Origin: an uncultured Actinomycetota bacterium
GTDB lineage: Bacteria > Actinomycetota > Actinomycetes > JAFAQI01
Assembly (NCBI GenBank): GCA_963770565.1
Contig: CAVYQE010000001.1
Span: 704,146-768,145 of the forward strand
Length of the DNA stretch: 64,000 bases
Direction of reading: 5' to 3'
The first letter of the stretch is position 1. Every line of letters starts with the position of its first letter. The position numbers and the translations under genes were made by a program. The notes below the pieces were generated by a model. It was not told where the DNA came from and searched no databases. It saw nothing but the letters and a program-made list of their open reading frames with translations. Shown here piece after piece: positions 28,067 to 36,418 of this stretch.

Positions 28067-30726
<2,660 letters not shown>

Positions 30727-30741: not shown

Positions 30742-31935
30742 TCAGAGCTTTGAGGGCTCGCCCGTGCACGAGCGAGCACTGCATGACTCGAAGAACGTCT
30801 TGGACGGCAGGCCGCTGCCAGGGGCGTCGTAGTACCCAACTGCGCTGGCCCGGGCCGTGGAGCCGGCGCTGATCGCAAACAGTCGGTAGTCCTCGCCTGG
30901 TGAGTTCTCAGCTTTCCAGCCGCGGCCCGCGGAGTACAGGATCTCCGGTCGCGTCGCCGTCACGCCGATCACCCAGGCCGACGTGCCGTGCACCGTGACG
31001 GCCAGGAGATCGGCGTGGCCGAGACTCTTGGCCAACTGAACGGTCGACCACTTCGTGCCGTTGAACGTCATCAGCACCGACCGATACCCCCCGCCGGTGG
31101 TGGTGCTGAACCCGGTGGCGTACGCCAGCTTGGCCGAGCTCGTCGCGACCGAGGTCAGCGTCACCCCGGCGGGCGCAGCGGTGCTGAGCGTCCAGGCCTT
31201 GCCGTTCCAATGAACCAGGGTGCTCTGGCTCAGGGCGTAGTCAGACCTCAGCGCCCATGCGTTGTTCGGACCGGAGGTGCTCACGTCGTACAGCGTCTGC
31301 GAGTAGCCCGAGGGCACCGTCACGGCGGACCACTTCTTGCCGTTCCAGTGGAAGGCAACCTGCGCGGCGGTCTGACCTGGGTAGAAGCCTCCGACCGCCC
31401 ACGCGTTCGTGGCCGAGCTTGCGGAGATCGAGCTCACCGAATCGGAGAGGTCGGTCAGCGCGGGGAGCTTCTGGGCGACGAACTTCTTGCCCGCCAAGCG
31501 CCAGATCGCCGGCATGGTCTGGGGGCCCGCCTTCTGTTGCTTTGCTCCGCCCAGCCAGATCGTTCGTGCGGACCCCGCTGCGACGGTGGTGAGCGAGCCG
31601 TACCTTCCCCCGAGTGCGGGTGCCTTTACCGCCCGCCACTGCCCGTGGTGGCGTTGTCCGACGAAGAAGCGCGCGTTGTCGACCGTGCCGTTGGAGCCGA
31701 CCGCCCAGACGTCGGAGGAATGCGGCACCGCGGTCACCGCGGTCAGCTCTCCTGCGCTCGCGGCTGGGGGCTTGGCCGTGGCCGCCATCCCAGCGGGCGC
31801 CCCACGTGCCAACGAGCCGCCTGCGACGAGAACGCCCAGCGCCGCCATCGCAACCGATCCGATCGCCAGCGTGGGTCGTCCGCGGTGGTGGGCTCGTGCG
31901 GGTGCAGTCACGGCCTGCAACTCAGCCATCAACAT
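30742..31935 (-). CDS. secreted repeat (beta-propeller-like) protein, hypothetical
   Basis: N-terminal signal-like hydrophobic segment (IGSVAMAALGVLVAGGSLA), then ~6 repeats of a ~45-aa module (…AWAVG…HWNGKKW…) rich in Trp, Gly, Ser and Thr. A GAGAGG RBS precedes the ATG. The start may be 31929 or 31935. Confidence 0.55.
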   Translation of the reverse strand: MLMAELQAVTAPARAHHRGRPTLAIGSVAMAALGVLVAGGSLARGAPAGMAATAKPPAASAGELTAVTAVPHSSDVWAVGSNGTVDNARFFVGQRHHGQWRAVKAPALGGRYGSLTTVAAGSARTIWLGGAKQQKAGPQTMPAIWRLAGKKFVAQKLPALTDLSDSVSSISASSATNAWAVGGFYPGQTAAQVAFHWNGKKWSAVTVPSGYSQTLYDVSTSGPNNAWALRSDYALSQSTLVHWNGKAWTLSTAAPAGVTLTSVATSSAKLAYATGFSTTTGGGYRSVLMTFNGTKWSTVQLAKSLGHADLLAVTVHGTSAWVIGVTATRPEILYSAGRGWKAENSPGEDYRLFAISAGSTARASAVGYYDAPGSGLPSKTFFESCSARSCTGEPSKL

Positions 31936-32053
31936 TGCCTCTCTAGGGCGCGCTCGTCCGGCGGAGGACGGCGACTGATTGGGGACTCTCAACCACGAAA
32001 CGTATCCGCAGTCTCGCATTGCGCCGCCGGCGGTCGCAGTCGATCGAGCGTGG

Positions 32054-32626
32054 TCAGCCGATCAGGGTCTGGTAGTCCTCCCAGGTGTTGACGTCGAGCG
32101 GGACCGGCCCGTCGATCTCGACGTCGGTCACCGGGTAACGGCCGGACTCCAGCAGCTTCCATACCGCCTTGTCACCGTGGAGCACGAGCAGGTCGTCGAA
32201 CACATCGCGATGGAACCAGAACGGATGCCCGCGACCGTTCGAATAGCGGCAGACCCCGAGTGGGGCGTCCGCCGCTTGCTCAATCAGATCGTGTACGACG
32301 ACCGGCGAGACGCCCGGCTGGTCGCCGAGCATCAGCACGAGACCGGTGGCCCGCTCGTCGACCTCGGCGATCGCGGCGCTGATCGACGACGAGCAGCCGG
32401 CGGTGAAGTTCAGGTTCTCGACCACCTGAATGCCGCTGAAGTCGACGGTCTGCCGCACTTGTTCGGATGCCCCGCCGATCGTGACGAGCAGCTGGTCGAA
32501 GCCGCACTGTCGCGCGACCGCGAGGGATGCGTCGAGCAACGTCGTGCCGCGATACGGCAGGAGTTGTTTCGGCTGCCCGAGCCGGGAGGACGATCCGGCG
32601 GCAAGTACCAAGCCGGTGACGAACAA
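32054..32626 (-). CDS. mocA: molybdenum cofactor cytidylyltransferase (MocA-like, NTP_transf_3)
   Basis: GLVLAAGSSSRLGQPKQLL (nucleotide-binding N-terminus of the MobA/MocA family), then ...LVLMLGDQP. TTG start 2 nt after the upstream XdhC stop. Confidence 0.7.
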   Translation of the reverse strand: MFVTGLVLAAGSSSRLGQPKQLLPYRGTTLLDASLAVARQCGFDQLLVTIGGASEQVRQTVDFSGIQVVENLNFTAGCSSSISAAIAEVDERATGLVLMLGDQPGVSPVVVHDLIEQAADAPLGVCRYSNGRGHPFWFHRDVFDDLLVLHGDKAVWKLLESGRYPVTDVEIDGPVPLDVNTWEDYQTLIG

Positions 32627-32628
32627 CG

Positions 32629-33609
32629 TCAGCGCGCGGTCTGCTCGGCGTAGCGCTCGCGGCAGCCCGGGTTGCAGAACCAGTAGTCGATGCCCTCGAC
32701 CCGTAGGTGCGGCGTGTCCGGGCGTACGACGACGGTCATGCCGCAGATCGGATCGATCGCCTGCTTGTTGAGGGCGGGCATCTCGGGACCCTGCGCCCTG
32801 AGACCGTCGACCCGCATCGCCTGAATGATCTGGGCGAGGATCGACAGCGCGATCTCGGCCGGGGTGTGCGCGCCGATGTCGATGCCGGCCGGGGTCTTGA
32901 TCCGGGCTCGCTCGGCCGGACCGAGGCCCATGGCTTCGAGCAGCGCGTCGCCGCGGCGGTGGCTCGCCACGACCTCGATCAGCCCGATCTGGGCATCGAG
33001 CGCCGCCCTGATCGCCTTCTCTTCGTCGTGGCCGAGGCTGCAGATGACGCTTGCGATCGCGCCTTGCGGCGACTCGTCGGGACCAGGGCGCACGACCATG
33101 AAGCTCAGCGGCCCGGCAAGCTCGGCGACCGCTTCGGCGATCGGCGTCGCACCGACGATGCTGAGGACGTCAGGCGGGAACTGAGGCTCCAAGAAGATCT
33201 CCAATGCGCCGCCGGACAGGCAGGGGTTCACGGTGACATAGGCACCGGGCGCCTCAGGGAAGGACGCCTCGCCGCCGGGCAGGACCCGAAGAAGCACGGC
33301 CTCGCCGCGGTCGAGCGCATTGAGCGCGGCCGTGCGCACTGACTCCTCGGCGCACTGGCCGCCGACGAAGCCCTCCATCGTGCCGTCGGGCAGGATCACC
33401 GCGTCGTCACCCGGTCGGGCTGACGTGGGTTGCTCAGCGCGGACGACGGTGGCGTGCACGAACGGCACGCGGAGCGCCGCCAACTCGGTCATCCGAACCG
33501 TCATCCGTTGAGCCACGATCGCGCTCCTGCTCAGGTCGACGGCCTTGGGGTAGGCATTGATCGCACCCCACGCCGCAACAGGTGTCAACGCCGGGTCGAA
33601 GCGAGCCAT
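32629..33609 (-). CDS. XdhC/CoxI-family Moco-maturation protein fused to a C-terminal YHS (TRASH-like) metal-binding domain
   Basis: XdhC_CoxI N-domain (…ATVVRAEQPTSARPGDDAVILPDGTMEGFVGGQCAEES…), XdhC Rossmann-like C-domain (IVGATPIAEAVAELA), then DPICGMTVVVRPDTPHLRVEGIDYWFCNPGCRERY, the YHS motif (DP.CGM...Y.FCS..C). The true start may be the internal ATG ~33504. Confidence 0.7.
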   Translation of the reverse strand: MARFDPALTPVAAWGAINAYPKAVDLSRSAIVAQRMTVRMTELAALRVPFVHATVVRAEQPTSARPGDDAVILPDGTMEGFVGGQCAEESVRTAALNALDRGEAVLLRVLPGGEASFPEAPGAYVTVNPCLSGGALEIFLEPQFPPDVLSIVGATPIAEAVAELAGPLSFMVVRPGPDESPQGAIASVICSLGHDEEKAIRAALDAQIGLIEVVASHRRGDALLEAMGLGPAERARIKTPAGIDIGAHTPAEIALSILAQIIQAMRVDGLRAQGPEMPALNKQAIDPICGMTVVVRPDTPHLRVEGIDYWFCNPGCRERYAEQTAR

Positions 33610-33714
33610 TCCTTACCACGCTCACGCCCCGCTGGCGGTTCGGTCGATGGGGCTCAGCGTGATGATCACCGGGCTACCCTGGAATGGAGCCAGAGTCGGC
33701 GAGAGGAGTCGGTT

Positions 33715-34029
33715 GTGCGCGAGCTGATCGACGATCTCGACCGCTGGCGGCGGCAGGGAAAGCGGGTCGCGATCGCGCGGGTCGTCGACATCGAAGGCTC
33801 CGGGCCGCGCGAGCCCGGCGCCGCGATGGCCGTGACCGAGGACGGCGTCGTTGCCGGCTCGGTCTCAGGCGGCTGCGTCGAGGGCGCGGTGGTCGAGGCG
33901 GCACTCGAGTCGTTGACGACCGGATTGCGCCGGGTCCACACCTTCGGCTACTCGGACGACGACGCGTTTGCGGTCGGCCTGACCTGTGGTGGCACGATCC
34001 ACGTTTTCGTCGAGCCGCTCGACTGGTAA
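33715..34029 (+). CDS. stand-alone XdhC_CoxI N-terminal domain protein
   Basis: …RVAIARVVDIEGSGPREPGAAMAVTEDGVVAGSVSGGCVEGAVV… is the conserved XdhC N-domain, including the SGGC motif. GAGAGGAG RBS 6 nt upstream of the GTG. 104 aa. Confidence 0.55.
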   Translation: MRELIDDLDRWRRQGKRVAIARVVDIEGSGPREPGAAMAVTEDGVVAGSVSGGCVEGAVVEAALESLTTGLRRVHTFGYSDDDAFAVGLTCGGTIHVFVEPLDW

Positions 34030-34032
34030 CGC

Positions 34033-34824
34033 GTGGCGCTTTACGACGACGTTGCCGCAGCGATGCGGGCCGAGCAGCCGGTTGCCCTTGCCACCGTGAT
34101 CGAGGGCCCCGGCGCCGGCGCGAAGCTGCTGGTCTCACCCGACAACCTGCCGGTCGGATCACTCGGTGACCCCGATCTCGACCGGGTCGTCGCGCGTGAC
34201 GCCGAGGGCGAGCTGGCTGCCGGTCTGAGCCGGGTACGCCGGTACGGTCCGCACGGCGAAGCGCGACAGGACGACGTCTCGGTGTTCATCGAGTCGTTCG
34301 TGCCGTCGCCGCAGATGATCATCTTCGGCGCGGTCGATTTCACCGCGGCACTCGTGCGGATCGCAAAGGTGCTCGGATACCGGGTGACGGTCTGCGATGC
34401 CCGCCCGGTGTTCGCGACCCGTGCACGTTTCCCGCTCGCGGACGAGATCGTCGTCGACTGGCCGAACCGGCTGCTCGAGCGAATCGGCCCGTCGTTGACC
34501 GCGCGTGATGCGATCTGCGTGCTGACCCACGACATCAAGTTCGACGTACCAGCGATTGTGGCCGGCCTTGCCACCGAGGCCGGCTACATCGGCGCGATGG
34601 GAAGCCGGCGTACCCATCAAGAGCGGATGGCGCGGCTGCGCGAGGCCGGCGTCGACGAGGCCGCGTTGTCGCGGCTGCACGCGCCGGTCGGGCTCGACCT
34701 CGGCGCGCGAACGCCGGAGGAGACGGCGGTCTCGGTGTGCGCGGAGATCATCGCGCTGCGCAACGGGCTGACCGATGTGCGTCCACTCGGCGAGACCGAA
34801 GGACCGATCCACCGCCGCGACTAG
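34033..34824 (+). CDS. XdhC/CoxI family protein (full length: N-domain + Rossmann-like C-domain)
   Basis: …VALATVIEGPGAGAKLLVSPD…, then …MIIFGAVDFTAALVRIAKVLGYRVTVCDARPVFA… GTG 3 nt after the upstream stop. Confidence 0.75.
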   Translation: MALYDDVAAAMRAEQPVALATVIEGPGAGAKLLVSPDNLPVGSLGDPDLDRVVARDAEGELAAGLSRVRRYGPHGEARQDDVSVFIESFVPSPQMIIFGAVDFTAALVRIAKVLGYRVTVCDARPVFATRARFPLADEIVVDWPNRLLERIGPSLTARDAICVLTHDIKFDVPAIVAGLATEAGYIGAMGSRRTHQERMARLREAGVDEAALSRLHAPVGLDLGARTPEETAVSVCAEIIALRNGLTDVRPLGETEGPIHRRD

Positions 34825-34832
34825 CGCGGCGC

Positions 34833-35432
34833 CTACAGCATCGTGAGCAGCATGTAGCCCATCGTCAGGTTCATCGCGACCTGGCAACACGCGACGCTGC
34901 GCGGCGCGATGATCTGCTCGGTGGTGTGCGGCTCGCTTGCCCTCCGGGAGGTTCGGTCGGTGACCATGACGGTGTAGCCGACCATGAAAGCGACCAGCAG
35001 CAGCGCGACCGTGGGGAAGCGCACGTCCGGCCCGCCGACCGAACCCATCTGGCTCATCGCAGCAGTGGTTGATGGGCCGGCCATCGCCGTGGTAGGTGCC
35101 GCGACCAGCATGTAGACCATCGCGCCGCTGGTCACGAGGTGCCGCAGATGTGGGCCGACTGCGCCACCGGGTACGCCGACCAGGCCGCGCACCATCCGGT
35201 AGCCGAACCATCCGGCCGCCATGGCGAACACGACGACCCAGGGCGCCGGGCTGACCAGCCGCGCGGTCAACATGCCGGCCATCGCGATGCCCATCGCGGT
35301 GTGGACGGCGTCGATCGAGTAGTTGGTCGATCGGTGCATGAGGCGCGCGACGATCAACCGGCTCGCGCAGTAGGCGGCCACGGTGAGCATGGCCACGGCC
35401 AAGCCGTCGCTCAGCCAGGTTGGCATCACCAT
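34833..35432 (-). CDS. DUF5134-like polytopic membrane protein
   Basis: ~199 aa and highly hydrophobic (…LAVAMLTVAAYCASRLIVARL…, …ALLLVAFMVGYTVMV…). ATG within CAATGGTGATG overlapping the upstream gene stop. Only the 3' third of the 719-aa six-frame ORF 34833..36992 is coding. Confidence 0.55.
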   Translation of the reverse strand: MVMPTWLSDGLAVAMLTVAAYCASRLIVARLMHRSTNYSIDAVHTAMGIAMAGMLTARLVSPAPWVVVFAMAAGWFGYRMVRGLVGVPGGAVGPHLRHLVTSGAMVYMLVAAPTTAMAGPSTTAAMSQMGSVGGPDVRFPTVALLLVAFMVGYTVMVTDRTSRRASEPHTTEQIIAPRSVACCQVAMNLTMGYMLLTML

Positions 35433-36418
35433 TGGCTGCCGCCCTCGTGGTGTGCGTCGCCCTTGGCCGAGAGCGGCCAGTAAGTGATGGCGATCAGGAT
35501 CAGCAGCGGGCCGGAGCCGGGGTCCGTGCTCTGCCCGCCGGCAATGCCGCCGAAGGCCTGCGCGACGACCCAGATGGCGGCGGCGAGCATCGCTGCCGCG
35601 ACCACTCCGGCGCGAACGACTGTGCGCGACCCGAAGGCCGAGATCGCGATGCCGGCGCAGGTGGTCGCGAGCGCGACTGCAATCGCGAGGCCGTGATCTG
35701 CGGCAAGGGCGGCCGCCCGGTCGTCGATCGCCGCGAGCCACGAGGGCGCGCCGCTGGCCATGCCCACCAGCAGGTCGTGGACGCCCTGTGCGGACCGGCT
35801 CGAGCCGGTGAGGGCGAGGCCGGCCAGCGCCGCCCACAACCCCAGCCAGGTCAACCGAGCGGCCGGGACGCCGATCCGCCAGGCACCGATGAAGGCCCGG
35901 TCGGCGACGTTCGAGGGCTCCTCGGCCGGGCGTAACGGCCAGACCAGGACCGCGAGGACGGCGTACAGCAGGGCCGGGCCGGGCCCGCCGGCGAGCGGTC
36001 CCGCGGTTCCGACCAGTACGCCGCCGAGCCCTTCGCCGAGCCACCAGAGTGCGAGAGCCCAGACGATCGACGCAGCGAGTGCTGCCTTGACGGTCGGCCG
36101 CCAAGCGATCGCGAGACCTAGCCCGACCTGGATCGCGGCGAAGCCGGCGTTTGCCGGCACCGGATGCTGCGCCACCAACCGGGCGACCGCGGACATCGGC
36201 GCGGCGATGGCCGACGGGTTGCCGGCCGCGGCCGGGGCGAGGACCTGGCGGGCGAGTCCGGTGGTGAACATGAACGGCTGGAGCTGCAAGATGCCGTCGA
36301 AGAGCCAAAGGCCGGCCAAGGCAAGCTGCAGGACGCGGCGCAGCTCGGCGGCCGGCAACGCGATCGCGGTGAGCCGAGCTCCTCGCGCGCGCAGTCTCGG
36401 GGACGCGGCCATGCTCAC
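35426..36418 (-). CDS. hypothetical polytopic membrane protein (330 aa)
   Basis: Many predicted TM helices (…LQLALAGLWLFDGILQL…, …AASIVWALALWWLGEGLGGVLVG…). Translationally coupled to the downstream DUF5134-like gene. Divergent from choD. Confidence 0.55.
   Translation of the reverse strand: MSMAASPRLRARGARLTAIALPAAELRRVLQLALAGLWLFDGILQLQPFMFTTGLARQVLAPAAAGNPSAIAAPMSAVARLVAQHPVPANAGFAAIQVGLGLAIAWRPTVKAALAASIVWALALWWLGEGLGGVLVGTAGPLAGGPGPALLYAVLAVLVWPLRPAEEPSNVADRAFIGAWRIGVPAARLTWLGLWAALAGLALTGSSRSAQGVHDLLVGMASGAPSWLAAIDDRAAALAADHGLAIAVALATTCAGIAISAFGSRTVVRAGVVAAAMLAAAIWVVAQAFGGIAGGQSTDPGSGPLLILIAITYWPLSAKGDAHHEGGSQW

Follow-up and report, generated by a model that had tools for sequence, protein, structure and literature searches.

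Molybdenum-Cofactor Maturation Genes of the Form-I CO Dehydrogenase Type, Probably Detached from Their Structural Genes, in an Uncultured Actinomycetota Bacterium

Introduction

A stretch of 64,000 nucleotides from an uncultured Actinomycetota bacterium (contig CAVYQE010000001.1; hereafter the window, meaning the whole stretch analyzed) carries four clustered genes for the maturation of molybdenum cofactor (Moco). These are a mocA-like gene and, on the same strand, an xdhC gene whose product ends in a TRASH/YHS-like domain (the tailed XdhC), followed divergently by a gene for a lone XdhC N-domain and a further xdhC. Which enzyme do these genes serve, and do they still serve one? An initial annotation, made from the letters alone, took them for an orphan Moco module and proposed that the tailed XdhC was a copper-related factor for a Mo-Cu enzyme encoded elsewhere. 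The question reaches beyond this genome: of all the steps by which aerobic carbon monoxide dehydrogenase (CODH), the remover of atmospheric CO, is made, the insertion of copper is the one least understood.

All four open reading frames (ORFs) were present at 32054-34824, and the domains initially assigned to them were borne out by Pfam: NTP_transf_3 in the mocA product, XdhC_CoxI plus XdhC_C in two proteins, and XdhC_CoxI alone in the fourth. The G+C content of the window was 66-73%, and real genes were told from shadow ORFs by their codon-position G+C. From the comparisons described below, we consider it probable that the region holds maturation genes of an aerobic form-I [MoCu] CODH, which have been detached from the structural genes, kept, and act in trans.

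Orthologs of the Tailed XdhC in Form-I cox Clusters

For the tailed XdhC, the 80 nearest relatives (54-76% identity) were collected from one genome per prokaryotic species (GTDB), and their flanks were classified by tblastn with CoxM, CoxS, CoxL, CoxD, CoxG, and CoxE of locus L002 together with the window's own proteins. The ortholog lay directly 3' of coxM-coxS-coxL in 78 of the 80 loci (54-63% identity), at most about 215 bp separating the end of coxL from its start. CoxL displayed AYACSFR, the Mo-Cu active-site signature of form-I enzymes, in 76 of these 78 loci, the other two having a coxL fragment at a contig end. The cox-linked loci also contained coxD (76 loci), coxE (69), and coxG (41), a mocA ortholog directly 3' of the tailed XdhC (49/78), and the pair of N-domain and XdhC genes just upstream of coxM, either divergent or co-directional (21 loci). 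We refer to this arrangement, [xdhCN-xdhC2] coxM-coxS-coxL(AYACSFR)-xdhC-TRASH-(mocA)-coxD-(coxG)-coxE, by the working name of type-A cluster. In L005, L007, L027, L062, and L081 the order was xdhC2(-) xdhCN(-) / coxM S L xdhC-tail mocA coxD G E, and the order in the window was the same minus coxMSL and coxD/G/E. The exceptions among the 80 were just the two closest relatives, L003 (76% identity, an uncultured Actinomycetota metagenome-assembled genome, MAG) and L004 (64%, a Mycobacteriales MAG).

The association of the XdhC-YHS fusion with Mo-Cu CODH, which the initial annotation had proposed to check, was thus found almost throughout the sample, and a copper-related XdhC for a Mo-Cu enzyme is well supported by this context. 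It extends to other phyla, with a tailed XdhC at the position of CoxF in the form-I clusters of Thermomicrobium roseum, Paraburkholderia aromaticivorans, and the haloarchaeon Natronorubrum bangense. The idea of an orphan Moco module as a novel unit did not survive, the region being the accessory part of a form-I cox cluster without coxMSL and coxD/G/E. In most Actinomycetota the accessory genes stand on either side of coxMSL; in the lineage of the window, coxMSL and coxD/G/E are absent from the locus.

Other form-I clusters (type B, with AYRCSFR in CoxL; L086, L087, and L093) presented their own XdhC-YHS directly after coxL, which shared 34% identity with the tailed XdhC of the window and gave clear Pfam YHS matches. 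Type-B clusters L084 (16325-17983), L086 (13968-15407), L087 (14002-15465), and L093 (13921-15318) also displayed an ORF of about 89 aa before coxM and five small ORFs right after coxG (about 84, 75, 63-91, 89-101, and 99-124 aa). At least some of the latter were hydrophobic, and they matched no Pfam family save a weak DUF1059 in L084.

A Detached Lineage under Purifying Selection

The initial annotation had found no structural genes within 8 kb of the module; tblastn and Pfam bore this out and widened it to the whole 64 kb. No Mo-hydroxylase domain was found by Pfam in the large ORFs of the window and the ORFs adjacent to the module, and the tailed XdhC lacks the setting beside coxMSL, coxD, and coxE of the form-I clusters. 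This detached layout was present only in the lineage of the window, in eight contigs (the window, L001, L003, L004, L083, L085, L095, and L096; 64-86% identity), and in L003 and L004 the module lay between guaB3 and DUF5134-choD, as in the window.

The four detached genes are clearly under purifying selection and maintained. The ratios of nonsynonymous to synonymous substitution rates (dN/dS) with respect to L003 and L004, which are approximate because dS was 0.6-1.0 and near saturation, were 0.17 and 0.24 for mocA, 0.18 and 0.36 for the tailed XdhC, 0.10 and 0.12 for the N-domain ORF, and 0.13 and 0.20 for the 263-aa XdhC, as compared to 0.11 and 0.14 for the flanking guaB3 and 0.13 and 0.20 for the flanking choD. 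None of the detached copies had lost any of the presumed ligand residues of the tail (one Asp and three Cys).

Within the same clade, L084 and L097 (about 69% identity) had the pair of tailed XdhC and mocA directly upstream of orf~90-coxM-coxS-coxL. CoxL of L084 displayed AYRCSFR and was directly followed by coxG, with no second XdhC-YHS between. This shows that the module of this clade can accompany a type-B form-I enzyme, which it presumably serves. From this we infer action in trans by the detached copies, with a CODH encoded elsewhere as their client. Such an enzyme is likely to be encoded elsewhere in this genome; the close CoxL proteins P0123, P0124, and P0158 were traced to other samples or assemblies and not to the genome of the window.

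The promoter region of the detached genes was compared with that of coxM. In type-A clusters of Actinomycetes and Acidimicrobiia, a palindrome TTAAG-N6/7-CTTAGG occurred directly 5' of a -35-like GTTGACA (L002, L007, L012, L014-L016, L020, L022, L025, L026, L028, L029, L031, L035, L036, L045, L048, L054, L071, L072, and L079). It lay about 60-90 nt upstream of coxM, with GTTGACA at -59 to -67 in many type-A promoters, and it is a candidate operator of a cox regulator. The palindrome was absent from the detached loci, including the region in the window, and therefore the detached operon may have escaped cox-specific control. In the detached lineage the operon of the tailed XdhC and mocA would sit directly behind the divergent promoter. 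In the window, GTTGACA was located at 33583-33589 (-), roughly 70 nt ahead of the GTG that opens the tailed XdhC, and GGAATG farther upstream, at 33607-33612 (-), both elements being kept in five aligned detached loci. Homology between this promoter and that of coxM was considered and rejected, since nothing beyond a generic GTTGACA, at a comparable distance, is common to the two. A consensus sigma-70 scan of 31900-35000 gave no promoter-like site, and the one terminator-like site in the same interval was no more than was obtained in shuffled controls. An Rfam scan of the whole window, by which any Moco riboswitch between the divergent genes would have been covered, gave no match.

These data also bear on a different explanation, according to which the CODH was lost by in-place deletion of coxMSL and coxD/G/E and the four genes are a relic or have been repurposed. 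They would then be decaying leftovers, or would mature other Mo-hydroxylases dependent on the cytosine-dinucleotide form of Moco (MCD), such as form-II CoxL-like enzymes, and the tail would no longer be for copper. A gene order identical to that of a type-A cluster minus the structural and coxD/G/E genes agrees with such a history, as do the missing palindrome and the loss of mocA in L095. Form-II enzymes do occur in the clade, since L097 (165-7312) contains a form-II cluster (AYRGAGR; coxS-coxL-coxM-coxD-coxE-mocA-coxG) at 2.7 kb from its form-I module. That cluster has its own mocA, coxD, coxE, and coxG and no tailed XdhC, whereas the tailed XdhC of L097 adjoins the form-I genes and is co-directional with them. 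Moreover, most detached contigs have all four genes intact, at dN/dS values (0.10-0.36) like those of the housekeeping neighbors (0.11-0.20), and the Asp and Cys residues of the tail are invariant. We thus regard a relic as somewhat unlikely, while an origin of the detached layout by in-place deletion is plausible rather than demonstrated.

The CoxF-Type XdhC and Its Tail

The tailed XdhC exceeded the Pfam cut-offs for both PF02625 (58.9 bits) and PF13478 (63.9 bits). Plasmid pHCG3 of Oligotropha carboxidovorans carries two XdhC-family genes, coxF, located after coxD-coxE, and coxI, and the window protein matched CoxF (33% identity, E=1e-30) considerably better than CoxI (E=6e-7), by which it is classified as CoxF-type. 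CoxF in turn matched the tailed XdhC of T. roseum at E=1e-51. The full-length AlphaFold2 model had a predicted local distance difference test score (pLDDT) of 89, with about 90 for the blocks of the tail, and its best PDB folds were those of the XdhC family (2WE7, 2WE8, and 3ON5). Genetic evidence on copper insertion by CoxF comes from O. carboxidovorans alone: Pelzmann et al. found that coxE and coxF mutants produce CODH with a sulfurated Mo site but without copper, and they proposed that CoxF escorts copper, with MCPSHGTM as a putative site inside the protein, along with a speculative phytase idea (PMC4240915). When the sequences were compared by eye, the Cys of MCPSHG appeared to be the counterpart of the invariant NPCLSGG Cys in the tailed XdhC.

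The tail comprised 45-50 aa, and among 41 homologs D251, C254, G255, M256, W275, C277, and C281 were invariant, P252, H266, and F276 being near-invariant. TRASH domains have a Cys signature C-x(19-22)-C-x3-C. The spacing in the tail, C254-x22-C277-x3-C281 with D251 ahead of the first Cys, fits this TRASH/YHS signature with its preceding Asp. Some orthologs, in part of Streptosporangiales type (e.g., Thermopolyspora), had two or three tails in tandem (P0045, P0042, P0051, and P0024), and the multi-copy P0024 and P0051 registered Pfam YHS/TRASH matches; over the family, YHS reached E<=0.01 in just 7 of 41 members. When a profile of the tails was compared with PDB, it matched L24e (E=0.0095) and, in phenol hydroxylase, the YHS region at the C-terminus (E=0.06), whereas the single sequence gave nothing significant (L24e, E=0.29). 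The tail modeled by itself (pLDDT 94.4) formed four short strands and a helix; the top 50 PDB folds were all eL24/L24e, with template modeling scores of 0.51-0.64 and root mean square deviations of about 2.2-4.1 Å, at E values (0.17-1.3) that are non-significant for such a short domain.

The motif, the tandem copies, and the profile and fold predictions taken together argue that the tail is a module of the TRASH/YHS class despite its failure with Pfam. The tail claimed by the initial annotation therefore stands as regards conserved motif, profile, and predicted fold, but not as a Pfam match above the cut-offs. In the literature searched, no paper named YHS or TRASH in connection with XdhC or CoxF. 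A copper-responsive YHS domain occurs in an adenylyl cyclase of Mycobacterium phlei. In YHS domains the set of one Asp and three Cys has been proposed as copper ligands, and the one biochemical example cited acts as a sensor, not a donor (PMC4626032).

This sensor, the nearest solved folds being zinc-ribbon-like L24e domains, and a tail-less CoxF that is functional in O. carboxidovorans would all suit a tail that is no copper donor, acting as a structural zinc ribbon or as a docking or sensing module (for example in contacts with CoxD/CoxE or the apo-enzyme, or in a copper-dependent control of XdhC activity). Against such a role stand the strict association of the tail with the copper-containing form-I enzyme and its absence from the neighboring form-II cluster of L097; in addition, amplification to two or three copies is easier to reconcile with an increased capacity for metal than with one docking site. 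On balance, a non-donor tail seems unlikely to us.

The Split CoxI-Type XdhC

The 104-aa ORF matched PF02625 (E=1e-23, 83.1 bits) and consisted of the N-domain only, and the 263-aa XdhC matched PF13478 (E=3e-43, 147.9 bits) and more weakly PF02625 (41.7 bits), both above the Pfam cut-offs. The former shared 42% identity with the N-terminus of CoxI, and the two proteins concatenated aligned with CoxI over 341 columns (E=7e-33). By these alignments, the pair is classified as a CoxI/Rv0376c-type XdhC produced by gene fission of a three-domain protein, whose domains are distributed in the window over 104 and 263 aa on either side of a TAA.

Among the 24 distinct loci of relatives that hold the pair, it was fused as one ORF in 14 (Nocardia, Rhodococcus, Mycobacterium, Streptomyces, and one Acidothermaceae MAG) and split in 10 (the clade of the window and Acidimicrobiia). 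The fused versions, and the fact that in the window both ORFs are in the same frame with only TAA and CGC between them, might suggest a single gene broken at TAA 34027-34029 by a nonsense mutation or a sequencing error, i.e., a pseudogene. In L001, L003, and L004, however, the split occurs at the same point, yet the halves do not share a frame and the stop is TAG or TGA, which indicates that the in-frame TAA of the window is coincidental and that the fission is old and maintained; Acidimicrobiia are also split. Both halves had dN/dS values of 0.10-0.20, and the 104-aa and 263-aa calls recurred in L001, L083, and L095. The comparative data contradict a pseudogene, which we rejected as very improbable. 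Selenocysteine incorporation or read-through at the in-frame stop was likewise discarded, as the stop is TAA and the relatives are split in other frames.

The initial annotation had seen in the isolated N-domain a heteromeric XdhC assembly. A two-subunit CoxI-type protein is reasonable, and is the simplest reading of the pair, but it would have arisen by fission of a gene that is fused elsewhere and not by recruitment of a new component.

Proposed Maturation Pathway

The mocA product contained a full-length MobA-like NTP-transferase domain (PF12804, NTP_transf_3; E=2e-35, 122.6 bits), and its best NCBIfam match was TIGR03310 (MocA/YgfJ) with 124.3 bits, the equivalog cut-off of 186.45 not being reached. 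The cofactor of CODH is the MCD form (PMC4240915). In the maturation that we propose, the putative MocA would produce this form, the body of the 295-aa CoxF-type XdhC would handle the sulfurated Mo site, and its tail would bind copper through the Asp and the three Cys and pass Cu(I) to the Mo-SH center; the 104-aa and 263-aa proteins would work as a complex of two halves of one CoxI-type XdhC. Kept under selection, the genes would most likely serve in trans a form-I CODH encoded elsewhere, perhaps by a coxMSL-coxG cluster that lacks an XdhC-YHS of its own, as the two clade relatives L084 and L097 suggest. A further step would be to take the TRASH-tailed CoxF as the actual Cu(I) donor within a free-standing cassette that serves a non-cognate type-B CODH in trans, accessory genes being displaced between CODH lineages; this is possible, but we put it forward tentatively and with more doubt than confidence.

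Several observations weigh against maturation genes that act in trans for a copper-containing CODH. CoxM, CoxS, CoxL, CoxD, CoxE, and CoxG had zero matches in the 64-kb window (tblastn, E<=0.01). The tail alone failed the Pfam gathering scores for both YHS (PF04945; 15.7 bits vs. a cut-off of 30.3) and TRASH_HVO_1752_C (PF24273; 19.0 bits vs. 27), an outcome that the initial annotation had itself named as one that would refute its reading. CoxF of O. carboxidovorans is tail-less and the tail of a Deinococcus homolog is degenerate, without the first Cys; therefore, the tail is not universally required. A treble clef with three Cys could also bind structural zinc in place of copper. In L095 (10886-11988), the closest relative on a long contig (86% identity), mocA has gone from behind the tailed XdhC and a DUF559-like gene is in its place, which hints at erosion. 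Finally, the near saturation of dS makes the dN/dS values approximate. With these points included, we still hold detached, trans-acting CODH maturation genes to be the probable identity of the region.

An Asp/Cys3 tail on most of the CoxF-position proteins examined, from Actinomycetota, Thermomicrobiota, Burkholderiales, and a haloarchaeon, offers a concrete and mutable candidate copper site. A detached module kept under selection suggests that these factors can act in trans, which bears on the heterologous expression of CODH. When CO oxidation is called from genomes, accessory genes without a nearby coxL neither prove nor disprove the capacity.

Gene Boundaries and Neighboring Genes

The coordinates of the module and of two possibly associated genes are collected in Table 1. 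For the tailed XdhC, GTG 33516 is the most likely start (295 aa, VAQRMTVRM...). This start is favored because AGGAG lies 8 nt upstream and because it fits the N-termini of the homologs (M-x-x-R-M-x-x-R-M-x-E-L). The alternative ATG 33609, which opens the mechanical 326-aa ORF, was rejected, as its 35 extra codons cover the conserved promoter-like intergenic element. Similarly, GTG 33715, preceded by GAGAGGAG, is the most likely start of the N-domain gene, giving 104 aa. The mechanical ORFs 33430-34029(+) and 32629-33609(-) carry long spurious 5' extensions (33430-33714 and 33517-33609, respectively), each running into the other and across the promoter region common to both genes, so that automatic calls of 199 and 326 aa are too long. 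Only 2 nt separate the stop of the tailed XdhC from the TTG start of mocA, and the translational coupling of these minus-strand genes supposed in the initial annotation is therefore plausible.

Table 1. Features of the maturation module and the adjoining genes, in window coordinates.
Feature	Coordinates	Strand	Family or basis
mocA-like molybdenum-cofactor cytidylyltransferase (putative), 190 aa, TTG start	32054..32626	-	PF12804, TIGR03310
CoxF-type XdhC with C-terminal TRASH/YHS-like domain, 295 aa	32629..33516	-	PF02625 + PF13478
TRASH/YHS-like tail, last 48 aa of the tailed XdhC (...AIDPICGMTVVVRPDTPHLRVEGIDYWFCNPGCRERYAEQTAR)	32632..32775	-	Invariant D/Cys3 motif
Divergent intergenic region, 198 bp, promoter-like GTTGACA + GGAATG	33517..33714		Both motifs kept in five aligned detached loci
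XdhC N-domain protein, 104 aa, first half of split CoxI/Rv0376c-type XdhC	33715..34029	+	PF02625
XdhC, 263 aa, second N-like + Rossmann domain, second half of split XdhC	34033..34824	+	PF13478
DUF5134 membrane protein, possibly module-associated (membership unproven)	34833..35432	-	PF17197, E=6e-18
330-aa membrane protein, possibly module-associated, overlapping the DUF5134 start	35426..36418	-	No Pfam match

On the 5' side the module is preceded by groEL and genes for a TPR protein, a LuxR-type response regulator, and DUF5319, then guaB (28103-29599), a guaB3-like gene (29596-30726), and a gene for a 425-aa protein. On the 3' side it is followed by the DUF5134 and 330-aa membrane protein genes, a ChoD-like GMC oxidoreductase gene, a sulfotransferase gene, and guaA. 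The 425-aa protein (30742-32019, -) has an N-terminal hydrophobic segment and repeated WAVG/WALR-type motifs but no Pfam match; its gene stands between mocA and guaB3 in the window alone, relatives having nothing or other genes there (e.g., DUF559). Complete type-A cox clusters were followed by guaB-guaB3 in L059 (a Dermatophilaceae MAG), and in L074 (Nocardia) the coxE of such a cluster was followed by a ChoD-like gene. This is suggestive of the guaB-choD neighborhood as a recurrent home of cox genes, with junctions unlike those of the window.

The DUF5134 gene adjoined the module in every detached locus, and ten type-A cox clusters (L005, L016, L023, L027, L031, L035, L038, L047, L063, and L081) had a homolog of it no more than 10 kb away. 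The gene for the 330-aa membrane protein beside it was kept in L001, L003, L004, and L085 and as a fragment in L027. Largely conserved D-x3-H-x2-MG, H...AM.YM, and Met-rich segments were observed, and a role in metal handling may be speculatively suggested. DUF5134 is scarcely mentioned in the literature searched.

Comparison with Known Systems

The components belong to known families, the tailed architecture is widespread in sequence databases, and the module does not amount to a new type of system. It shares with type-A clusters the orthologs of all four genes in the same relative order and orientation, from which it differs in having neither coxMSL between the divergent genes, nor coxD/G/E after mocA, nor the promoter palindrome.

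The window's tailed XdhC and CoxF of Oligotropha (Afipia) carboxidovorans OM5 have in common a body of XdhC_CoxI and XdhC Rossmann domains, and CoxF is the best match on pHCG3; the position near coxD and coxE in form-I clusters is common to CoxF and the CoxF-type orthologs. CoxF has 280 aa without a TRASH/YHS tail, in contrast to the tailed window protein, in which the RHGxRxS "phytase" motif of CoxF is not present and whose gene is not beside coxMSL or coxD/E. The tail resembles YHS/TRASH domains (PF04945 and PF24273) in being a C-terminal module of about 45 aa with one Asp and three Cys (DPxCGM...FCxxxC) and in the predicted fold of beta-hairpins plus helix, and differs from them in that its score lies under the cut-offs and that it carries a conserved TPHL as well as a Trp ahead of the second Cys.

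The pair of 104-aa and 263-aa proteins, when joined, aligns along CoxI of O. carboxidovorans and belongs with the three-domain XdhC of the Rv0376c type (2WE7/2WE8); orthologs of the pair in fused form are encoded upstream of coxM in Nocardia, Rhodococcus, Mycobacterium, and Streptomyces. These are single polypeptides, whereas the clade of the window and several Acidimicrobiia use two genes. The mocA product resembles MocA (TIGR03310) in its full-length MobA-like domain, in its best model match, and in its occurrence in cox clusters, and differs in a score under the equivalog cut-off, its activity being putative. The locus thus departs from the systems described in three respects: its CoxF-type factor ends in a TRASH-like tail, its CoxI-type protein is split in two, and in this lineage alone the genes stand detached from the structural genes.

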